64,000 nt of DNA from Escherichia coli (GTDB lineage Bacteria; Pseudomonadota; Gammaproteobacteria; Enterobacterales; Enterobacteriaceae): NCBI RefSeq assembly GCF_003334385.1, contig NZ_QOWN01000005.1, one strand, 5' to 3'. Position numbers: made by a program. Shown here piece by piece: positions 8,078 through 11,000 of this stretch. How positions within the stretch are numbered: position 1 is the stretch's first letter; each line of letters starts with the position of its first letter.

Positions 8078-11000
8078 TAAGGACACGATAATGACGATTT
8101 TTGATAATTATGAAGTGTGGTTTGTCATTGGCAGCCAGCATCTGTATGGCCCGGAAACCCTGCGTCAGGTCACCCAACATGCCGAGCACGTCGTTAATGC
8201 GCTGAATACGGAAGCGAAACTGCCCTGCAAACTGGTGTTGAAACCGCTGGGCACCACGCCGGATGAAATCACCGCTATTTGCCGCGACGCGAATTACGAC
8301 GATCGTTGCGCTGGTCTGGTGGTGTGGCTGCACACCTTCTCCCCGGCCAAAATGTGGATCAACGGCCTGACCATGCTCAACAAACCGTTGCTGCAATTCC
8401 ACACCCAGTTCAACGCGGCGCTGCCGTGGGACAGTATCGATATGGACTTTATGAACCTGAACCAGACTGCACATGGCGGTCGCGAGTTCGGCTTCATTGG
8501 CGCGCGTATGCGTCAGCAACATGCCGTGGTTACCGGTCACTGGCAGGATAAACAAGCCCATGAGCGTATCGGCTCCTGGATGCGTCAGGCGGTCTCTAAA
8601 CAGGATACCCGTCATCTGAAAGTCTGCCGATTTGGCGATAACATGCGTGAAGTGGCGGTCACCGATGGCGATAAAGTTGCCGCACAGATCAAGTTCGGTT
8701 TCTCCGTCAATACCTGGGCGGTTGGCGATCTGGTGCAGGTGGTGAACTCCATCAGCGACGGCGATGTTAACGCGCTGGTCGATGAGTACGAAAGCTGCTA
8801 CACCATGACGCCTGCCACACAAATCCACGGCAAAAAACGACAGAACGTGCTGGAAGCGGCGCGTATTGAGCTGGGGATGAAGCGTTTCCTGGAACAAGGT
8901 GGCTTCCACGCGTTCACCACCACCTTTGAAGATTTGCACGGTCTGAAACAGCTTCCTGGTCTGGCCGTACAGCGTCTGATGCAGCAGGGTTACGGCTTTG
9001 CGGGCGAAGGCGACTGGAAAACTGCCGCCCTGCTTCGCATCATGAAGGTGATGTCAACCGGTCTGCAGGGCGGCACCTCCTTTATGGAGGACTACACCTA
9101 TCACTTCGAGAAAGGTAATGACCTGGTGCTCGGCTCCCATATGCTGGAAGTCTGCCCGTCGATCGCCGCAGAAGAGAAACCGATCCTCGACGTTCAGCAT
9201 CTCGGTATTGGTGGTAAGGACGATCCTGCCCGCCTGATCTTCAATACCCAAACCGGCCCAGCGATTGTCGCCAGCTTGATTGATCTCGGCGATCGTTACC
9301 GTCTACTGGTTAACTGCATCGACACGGTGAAAACACCGCACTCCCTGCCGAAACTGCCGGTGGCGAATGCGCTGTGGAAAGCGCAACCGGATCTGCCAAC
9401 TGCTTCCGAAGCGTGGATCCTCGCTGGTGGCGCGCACCATACCGTCTTCAGCCATGCACTGAACCTCAACGATATGCGCCAATTCGCCGAGATGCACGAC
9501 ATTGAAATCACGGTGATTGATAACGACACACGCCTGCCAGCGTTTAAAGACGCGCTGCGCTGGAACGAAGTGTATTACGGGTTTCGTCGCTAAGTAGCCG
9601 CATCCGGTATGTAACACCTGATGCGACGCTGACGCGTCTTATCTGGCCTACACGCTGCGATTTTGTAGGCCGGATAAGCAAAGCGCATCCGGCATTCAAC
9701 GCCTGATGCGACGCTGGCGCGTCTTATCAGGCCTACGCGCTGCGATTTTGTAGGCCGGATAAGCAAAGCGCATCCGGCATTCAACGCCTGATGCGACGCT
9801 GGCGCGTCTTATCAGGCCTACGCGCTGCGATTTTGTAGGCCGGATAAGCAAAGCGCATCCGGCATTCAACGCCTGATGCGACGCTGGCGCGTCTTATCAG
9901 GCCTACGCGCTGCGATTTTGTAGGCCGGATAAGCAAAGCGCATCCGGCATTCAACGCCTGATGCGACGCTGGCGCGTCTTATCAGGCCTACACGCTGCGA
10001 TTTTGTAGGCCGGATAAGCAAAGCGCATCCGGCACGAAGGAGTCAACATGTTAGAAGATCTCAAACGCCAGGTATTAGAAGCCAACCTGGCGCTGCCAAA
10101 ACACAACCTGGTCACGCTCACATGGGGCAACGTCAGCGCCGTTGATCGCGAGCGCGGCGTCTTTGTGATCAAACCTTCCGGCGTCGATTACAGCGTCATG
10201 ACCGCTGACGATATGGTCGTGGTTAGCATCGAAACCGGTGAAGTGGTTGAAGGTACGAAAAAGCCCTCCTCCGACACGCCAACTCACCGGCTGCTCTATC
10301 AGGCATTCCCCTCCATTGGCGGCATTGTGCATACGCACTCGCGCCACGCCACCATCTGGGCGCAGGCGGGTCAGTCGATTCCAGCAACCGGCACCACCCA
10401 CGCCGACTATTTCTACGGCACCATTCCCTGCACCCGCAAAATGACCGACGCAGAAATCAACGGCGAATATGAGTGGGAAACCGGTAACGTCATCGTAGAA
10501 ACCTTTGAAAAACAGGGTATCGATGCAGCGCAAATGCCCGGCGTTCTGGTCCATTCCCACGGCCCGTTTGCATGGGGCAAAAATGCCGAAGATGCGGTGC
10601 ATAACGCCATCGTGCTGGAAGAGGTCGCTTATATGGGGATATTCTGCCGTCAGTTAGCGCCGCAGTTACCGGATATGCAGCAAACGCTGCTGGATAAACA
10701 CTATCTGCGTAAGCATGGCGCGAAGGCATATTACGGGCAGTAATGACTGTATAAAACCACAGCCAATCAAACGAAACCAGGCTATACTCAAGCCTGGTTT
10801 TTTGATGGATTTTCAGCGTGGCGCAGGCAGGTTTTATCTTAACCCGACACTGGCGGGACACCCCGCAAGGGACAGAAGTCTCCTTCTGGCTGGCGACGGA
10901 CAACGGGCCGTTGCAGGTTACGCTTGCACCGCAAGAGTCCGTGGCGTTTATTCCCGCCGATCAGGTTCCCCGCGCTCAGCATATTTTGCAGGGTGAACAA

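Follow-up and report, generated by a model that had tools for sequence, protein, structure and literature searches.

The araA-araD intercistronic spacer was analyzed in a stretch of 64,000 nucleotides of Escherichia coli DNA (NCBI RefSeq assembly GCF_003334385.1, contig NZ_QOWN01000005.1), hereafter the window, to which all positions refer unless another record is named. The spacer carries the known bacterial interspersed mosaic element (BIME) of this locus, a BIME-2, in an allele that is unusually long, with five 85-bp units and ten palindromic units of the repetitive extragenic palindrome (REP) type. Based on sequence, the units in excess of the common three were most likely gained by slippage or unequal exchange, and by analogy with studied REPs the array would influence the ratio of araBA to araD output. 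This explanation as a whole, covering identity, origin and function, carries a joint confidence of about 0.8. The element, its locus and the variation of BIME-2 copy number have already been published (PMC3333891), and five-unit alleles are already present in public assemblies; the repeat is known to be polymorphic, and its rare allele in the window is essentially ordinary.

Structure and class of the array

Tandem Repeats Finder reported one array at 9599-10034 (period 85, 5.1 copies, 97% matches, 0% indels, score 816), and a separate repeat search returned 181-nt direct copies spaced 85/85/85 within it. The five tandem 85-bp copies described in the initial annotation were thereby confirmed, and the coordinates given there (9600-10024) were correct to within a few bases, the in-register units starting at 9599. 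The ends of the flanking open reading frames (ORFs), at 9593 and 10048, delimit a spacer of 454 bp (9594-10047), the length claimed originally, and 436 bp of it are repeat. The units run head to tail, hold ten complete REPs and lie entirely between the araA stop codon and the araD ATG. Their order is A-B-B-B-C, with the first unit divergent (A') and the three B units identical over 255 bp; unit C differs from B by a single base, with ACACGCTG in C where B has ACGCGCTG. The array ends in an 11-nt partial sixth copy which runs into the Shine-Dalgarno sequence of araD. The features of the region were as follows.

8091 to 9593, plus strand: araA (L-arabinose isomerase) coding sequence, from the ORF, with the same coordinates annotated in the collinear RefSeq record of strain Stbl4; stop codon TAA at 9591-9593
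9594 to 9609, plus strand: inverted Y REP remnant GTAGCCGCATCCGGTA directly after the araA stop, from the sequence and the inverted-repeat search
9599 to 10034, plus strand: BIME-2 array, 5.1 copies of the 85-bp unit, from Tandem Repeats Finder, the repeat search and the in-register units
9599 to 9683, plus strand: unit 1 (A', divergent), with Z2 REP 9616-9651 of weakened stem and inverted Y REP 9665-9694
9684 to 9768, plus strand: unit 2 (B), with Z2 REP 9701-9736 and inverted Y REP 9750-9779; Rfam naRNA4 match 9668-9733, 60.2 bits
9769 to 9853, plus strand: unit 3 (B, extra relative to strains MG1655 and SCU-104), with Z2 REP 9786-9821 and inverted Y REP 9835-9864; Rfam match 9753-9818
9854 to 9938, plus strand: unit 4 (B, extra relative to MG1655 and SCU-104), with Z2 REP 9871-9906 and inverted Y REP 9920-9949; Rfam match 9838-9903
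9939 to 10023, plus strand: unit 5 (C), with Z2 REP 9956-9991 and inverted Y REP 10005-10034; Rfam match 9923-9988
10037 to 10042, plus strand: araD Shine-Dalgarno sequence AAGGAG, 2 nt past the last Y hairpin, 5 nt before the ATG and outside the repeat
10048 to 10743, plus strand: araD (L-ribulose-5-phosphate 4-epimerase) coding sequence, from the ORF and the annotation of the collinear Stbl4 record
9544 to 10172, minus strand: six overlapping TTG-start ORFs of 51-73 amino acids, not genes, from the ORF list; periodic with the 85-bp unit

Each unit is composed of a forward 36-nt Z2 palindrome, GCCTGATGCGACGCTGGCGCGTCTTATCAGGCCTAC, and an inverted 30-nt Y palindrome, GTAGGCCGGATAAGCAAAGCGCATCCGGCA, separated by 13 nt tail to tail and by 6 nt head to head; the two inverted REP palindromes per unit seen at first reading were present in all five. 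The Z2 units read GCCTGATGCGACGC...GCGTCTTATCAGGCCTAC and the Y units, in reverse complement, GCCGGATGCGC...GCTTATCCGGCCTAC, both of which fit the REP consensus GC(g/t)GATGGCG(g/a)GC(g/t)...(g/a)CG(c/t)CTTATC(c/a)GGCCTAC (PMC12306157). For the REP head motif, 18 occurrences were counted in the 64-kb window, where 0.66 would be expected, and the tetranucleotide GTAG/CTAC stands at the foot of all REPs in the array. The palindromes are imperfect, with 14-nt arms that are 86% complementary and an internal bulge in the predicted hairpins. The REP stems hold a mismatch, and for this reason an inverted-repeat search with a 9-nt seed recovered no palindromes, while a 6-nt seed did.

BIME-2 elements are defined as z2 + y in several tandem copies, the copy number per locus differing among strains (Ton-Hoang et al. 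2012, PMC3333891). In the window five forward Z2 REPs alternate with five inverted Y REPs, and the number of copies, 5.1 here, ranges from one to five across 5,426 genomes (see below). The linkers between the REPs measure 13 and 6 nt; BIME-2 elements are described as having a short S linker between REP and inverted REP, flanked by s, l or r motifs. No match to the consensus of integration host factor (IHF), WATCAANNNNTTR, was found in 9594-10047, which argues for BIME-2 rather than BIME-1. The BIME identity proposed in the initial annotation is also borne out by the alternating orientation of Z2 and Y and by four matches to Rfam family RF02564 (naRNA4), each scoring 60.2 bits on the plus strand and covering model positions 1-77 (threshold 59.5 bits); unit 1 scored 25.3 bits.

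The RF02564 model was built upon one Z2/Y pair of REP325, and the matches, by a thin margin, represent shared sequence and structure and are no indication of an HU-related function. That the units act as naRNA4-like nucleoid-associated RNAs, joining REP cruciforms with HU as partner and compacting the chromosome, is suggested by the four units above the Rfam gathering score and is nevertheless very improbable. The matched sequence is common Z2/Y sequence, deletion or overexpression of REP325/naRNA4 leaves nucleoid volume unchanged and REP-REP contacts were undetected (bioRxiv 10.64898/2026.03.23.713779), so that a role of this kind is largely contradicted.

The ORF track had placed ORFs on the repeats, which were considered spurious from the beginning. 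The six minus-strand TTG ORFs follow the repeat, and since 85 is not divisible by 3 their frame shifts one base with each unit. They were rejected as genes on the basis of this periodicity, their exclusive use of TTG starts and the empty spacer in the RefSeq annotation; annotation pipelines should call no ORFs in the araA-araD spacer.

Allelic series and probable gain of units

The spacer of MG1655 (NC_000913.3; araD 65855-66550, araA 66835-68337) is exactly 284 bp, with units A-B-C, and is two units shorter than that of the window, as had been stated approximately in the initial annotation. The window differs from it by two additional exact B units and by one single-nucleotide polymorphism (SNP), G to A at 9616, where the first Z2 stem begins. 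Unit 2 is identical to the lone middle unit of MG1655.

Alleles were counted in 5,426 complete RefSeq E. coli genomes, which were searched with a flank-free query (9610-10023) under stepped E-value ceilings, so set that an individual alignment had to span a minimum of 5, 4, 3 or 2 units to pass. By calibration a perfect four-unit array gives 1e-173, a three-unit array about 1e-126 and a two-unit array about 1e-79. Coverage figures were unusable for alleles, since overlapping BLAST pieces let a three-unit genome fully cover the five-unit query. At least five units were found in 3 genomes, at least four (all alleles above three units) in 15, at least three in 2,027 and at least two in 3,181, with strongly diverged arrays (about 93% identity) possibly falling one class too low. 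One unit or fewer accounts for ~41% of the genomes, two units for ~21% and three for ~37%; four units are present in 12 genomes (0.2%) and five in 3 (0.06%), or 0.28% for all arrays of at least four, and no array above five units was found among the 5,426. The expectation that other strains would not commonly share the five copies was thus upheld. An independent even-step sample of 38 genomes, scored by alignment spans, gave 42% with one unit, 21% with two and 37% with three. In representative records, spacer length follows unit number as listed here.

Spacer of 114 bp: 1 unit
Spacer of 199 bp: 2 units
Spacer of 284 bp: 3 units
Spacer of 369 bp: 4 units
Spacer of 454 bp: 5 units
Spacer of 168 bp: 1 unit, then a different GC-rich palindromic element

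In about one third of the sampled genomes a GC-rich palindromic element, CCCCCTCGCCCCTTTGGGGAGAGGGCCGGGGTGAGGGG, lies between the last REP and araD; it resembles a boxC repeat. It alters the sequence immediately preceding the araD ribosome-binding site, which reads CAGGAG and not AAGGAG.

The five-unit records are Stbl4, XL10-Gold and one labelled TOP10 (CP081009, CP081008 and CP080620), which form a narrow accession series. Young four-unit arrays, with identical internal units, were found on the K-12 haplotype in GM4792, XL1-Blue, the chicken isolate JX21CE35 and FACU 2024, and likewise in two BL21(DE3)-type records. Their presence on separate haplotypes points to recurrent gain. Old four-unit arrays have units which are mutually diverged, together with the extra palindromic element, in a 423-bp spacer (pigeon, calf and freshwater isolates). 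One BL21(DE3) record reads A-C-C-C (369-bp spacer) versus A-B'-C in BL21 Star (284 bp), a difference due either to loss and amplification (homogenization) or to polishing that homogenized the repeat. Past rpsT the Stbl4 assembly continues with tRNA-Lys, RtT and xapR in place of the IS1-nhaR region, a sign of a rearrangement or an inversion breakpoint when compared with the window and MG1655.

The first ~32 kb of the window are near-identical to K-12, with a handful of SNPs, and 32-64 kb are 1-2% diverged from MG1655. About 4 kb (56172-60238) are without counterpart in the MG1655 stretch compared, and records matching 40000-64000 annotate espX1 and a fimbrial usher. An origin of the window in a K-12 lab strain was suggested by 25 kb of 100% identity with Stbl4 and was rejected on the 1-2% divergence that begins at ~32 kb. 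The closest complete genome is that of the human commensal SCU-104, with about 15 differing sites over 49 kb and three units in its array. The A at 9616 is common to the window and SCU-104 only and is absent from all five-unit records. The near-identity of SCU-104, which has this base and yet three units, suggests that the expansion in the window is recent, and the lack of the base in the five-unit records suggests that the allele of the window arose separately from that of the lab strains. Of the evidence for recurrent gain of units, that for separate origins in the window and the lab strains is the strongest.

Starting from the common A-B-C allele, exact duplication of the middle unit, twice or in one two-unit step, would yield A-B-B-B-C. 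As far as the sequence indicates, the route was most likely slippage during replication or unequal exchange of sister strands between the 85-bp direct repeats, with which the exact, in-register extra units are in agreement; such events would also yield the series of 1 to 5 units across E. coli. Another source could be TnpA(REP), a REP-associated tyrosine transposase (RAYT), which would add units by cleaving single-stranded BIME DNA and transferring strands. In vitro the enzyme cleaves the MG1655 araD-A BIME at an inverted REP (iREP) site and a linker site and recombines araD-A substrates into multi-REP products, and its authors propose it as a source of copy-number variation (PMC3333891). The GTAG/CTAC at each REP foot, which along with cleaved C|T sites marks a TnpA(REP) substrate, is retained in all units of the window, the cleavage data being those for the MG1655 version. 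This route is nonetheless unlikely. Strains with and without tnpA(REP) show minor differences only in REP/BIME number (PMC3333891), the in vitro araD-A product between two cleavage sites (95 nt, the substrate being 88 nt) does not amount to the gain of a whole unit, and exact 85-bp gains in perfect register are the outcome of plain homology-driven slippage. The tnpA(REP) gene itself is positioned outside the 64-kb window.

The count of five could also be an assembly artefact, the true array being of three or four units inflated by the assembler or polisher. Three internal units identical over 255 bp are beyond short reads and can be miscounted by noisy long reads, and the nearest relative, SCU-104, has three. 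The expanded lab-strain records (XL1-Blue with 4 units; XL10-Gold, Stbl4 and 'TOP10' with 5; BL21(DE3) and BL21-RIPL with 4) share a narrow accession range, and among them are the homogenized BL21(DE3) array described above and a 'TOP10' record with an intact leu-ara region. Against these points, the usual error for identical tandem units is collapse and not expansion, and individual long reads readily cross a 454-bp spacer. K-12-type alleles of four units are also found under unrelated accessions (GM4792, JX21CE35 and FACU 2024), and outside the array the window is 99.96% identical to SCU-104, as in an otherwise clean assembly. An artefact is accordingly considered improbable, and a gain of units by slippage or unequal exchange is preferred.

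Putative effects on the araBAD transcript

A motif scan of 9300-10400 revealed no sigma-70-like promoter and, on either strand, no intrinsic-terminator-like site. Neither REP hairpin precedes a U run, the sole T run of each unit (TTTT) being in the linker, 10 nt past the Z2 REP, and the array has no GC-rich hairpin followed by a U run as in intrinsic terminators. The lack of such sites supports co-transcription of the array within araBAD, which was the location given in the initial annotation. The RNA hairpins of the Z2 and Y REPs have predicted energies of -21.7 and -12.9 kcal/mol, respectively. The predicted Z2 hairpin of unit 1 is weaker, at -13.7 kcal/mol versus -16.8 for the first-unit form of MG1655 and -21.4 for unit 2. 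The entire spacer was predicted to fold at -229.7 kcal/mol (z = -8.75 relative to shuffles), and about -45 kcal/mol of predicted structure is gained with every added unit.

In the araBAD mRNA the array would form a series of stable hairpins, which would stop 3'-to-5' exonucleases, so that the araBA part of the message would outlast the araD part, and would partly attenuate transcription into araD with the assistance of Rho; stabilization and attenuation together would set the ratio of AraB and AraA to AraD. The Y REPs, as DNA, would provide sites for binding and cleavage by gyrase. REP hairpins shield 3' ends against PNPase and RNase II (PMC6061677). REP325, with twelve alternating Z2/Y units, is a partly Rho-dependent attenuator with an effect of about 8-10-fold on the downstream gene, and also protects upstream mRNA and gives a ladder of hairpin-ended transcripts (bioRxiv 10.64898/2026.03.23.713779). 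Gyrase cleavage is enriched at BIME-2 elements, preferentially at Y REPs, as shown for other loci (PMC6379681), and the Y REPs of the array are by analogy likely gyrase sites. From these analogues we infer a role of the array in setting the araBA:araD ratio, in which five units would act somewhat more strongly than three and offer more gyrase sites.

Accumulation of L-ribulose-5-phosphate is toxic (PMC7269641). Too little AraD would lead to this compound, which makes a ceiling on array length plausible; selection against very long arrays through such toxicity is likewise plausible and consistent with their rarity. A stronger proposal holds that array length is a heritable, fast-mutating dial on araBA:araD, that each Z2/Y unit lowers read-through into araD, that the scarcity of arrays above three units is due to toxicity selection and that the allele of the window amounts to a naturally occurring partial araD hypomorph. 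It is regarded as unlikely.

The change in length may also be without functional effect, the units being tolerated selfish or neutral DNA and three units equal to five. Alleles of 1 to 4 units occur in wild isolates, those of 1, 2 and 3 units being all common, araD has its own Shine-Dalgarno sequence outside the repeat, and REP effects are variable and dependent on context (bioRxiv 10.64898/2026.03.23.713779). On the other hand, the restriction of four or more units to 0.28% of genomes, with none above five, suggests a ceiling, and the closest studied analogue, REP325, has order-of-magnitude effects on its downstream gene. Neutrality is considered somewhat unlikely.

The structure near the araA stop codon may instead stall terminating ribosomes and lower AraA, following the rule for REPs within 15 nt. 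According to the summary given in PMC12306157, translation can be reduced by REPs located less than 16 nt away from a stop codon (Liang et al. 2015). The 3' arm of the Y REP remnant is able to pair with the start of the first Z2 REP, and the resulting 10-bp stem (9599-9608 with 9616-9625) begins 5 nt past the araA stop. This proximal stem has low stability, however, and is in competition with the Z2 hairpin, and the first complete REP begins 22 nt past the stop. The stop-proximal feature is moreover the same in every allele and explains nothing specific to five copies, and such stalling is held to be improbable here.

Several points weigh against the explanation favored above, namely a recently expanded BIME-2 with an influence on araBA:araD. 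The copy number of the window rests on a single assembly. The three five-unit records were probably submitted as a single batch, and their independence is not assured. The 'TOP10' record (NZ_CP080620.1) has leuLABCD, araC and araBAD all intact; from the published genotype of TOP10 an ara-leu deletion is expected, and because of this conflict the record is probably mislabelled or from another K-12 line. The scarcity of long arrays could stem from a mutational bias to contraction and not from selection. The C/G ratio of the array is 1.0, unlike the C-rich, G-poor loading sites of Rho. A literature search for araBAD expression by array length, or for an ara-specific REP function, returned nothing. 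The effects of REPs are context-dependent, and half-lives are not uniformly lengthened (bioRxiv 10.64898/2026.03.23.713779); the size and even the direction of an effect at ara may therefore differ from those at REP325.

Beyond bookkeeping the significance of the allele is small. Short-read assemblies may collapse the araA-araD spacer, and its amplification by polymerase chain reaction yields an 85-bp ladder that separates strains, including closely related lab stocks. The alleles of 1 to 5 units in otherwise near-identical contexts form a natural series usable to test REP number against attenuation and mRNA stability, for which the output ratio of the ara operon, with its known toxicity readout, would be useful.

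Other features of the window and comparison with known systems

A second difference in BIME copy number was observed in the caiE-caiF spacer (41826-41998), where Tandem Repeats Finder identified two 90-bp units (1.9 copies) and Rfam a naRNA4 match of 70.7 bits (41874-41944, minus strand). The segment 41834-41964 is missing from MG1655 and Stbl4 and present in SCU-104. The yabP/yabQ region has two 15-bp tandem repeats, at 17368-17422 (3.7 copies) and 17463-17559 (6.5 copies); at the latter SCU-104 is longer by 45 bp (three repeats), which makes it another length-variable repeat among near-identical strains. Positions 63290-64000 match IS186A of MG1655 (about 15375-16085) in an orientation opposite to that of the flanking hokC-nhaA, and the IS186 beside hokC/sokC thus appears to be inverted relative to MG1655. 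Other expected Rfam matches, at 818-917, 47120-47172 and 62980-63132, were to the thiamine pyrophosphate (TPP) riboswitch upstream of thiB, the small RNA ES003 and the sok antitoxin RNA (hokC/sokC).

Intercistronic REPs are reported to stabilize mRNA (Newbury et al. 1987, cited in PMC12306157). Those of malE-malF and hisJ-hisQ, in common with the ara array, are REP hairpins in a polycistronic transcript, downstream of the more expressed gene or genes. They consist of one or two REPs with a measured effect, whereas the ara array has ten REPs and a role proposed by analogy.

The MG1655 araD-araA BIME (substrates B315/B316, PMC3333891) has the same locus and flanks, and its units are base for base those of the window except for the SNP at 9616. 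It differs in having three units in 284 bp, against five in 454 bp, three of them copies of the middle unit.

BIME-1 (RIB/RIP) elements are also made of an inverted REP pair. They are single-copy and consist of Z1 + Y with a long linker that carries an IHF site (PMC3333891), in contrast to the ara array, which is tandem and made of Z2 + Y with short linkers.

REP325, between yjdM and yjdN, differs from the ara array in its 100-bp period (85 bp in ara), a Y REP of 35 nt (30 nt in ara) and other linkers. Its roles as attenuator and stabilizer are experimental, while those of the ara array are putative, drawn by analogy. In both elements Z2 alternates with inverted Y between two co-transcribed genes, in the same order in the mRNA sense; REP325 has 12 palindromic units and the ara array 10, and their Z2 sequences are identical at 35 of 36 positions.

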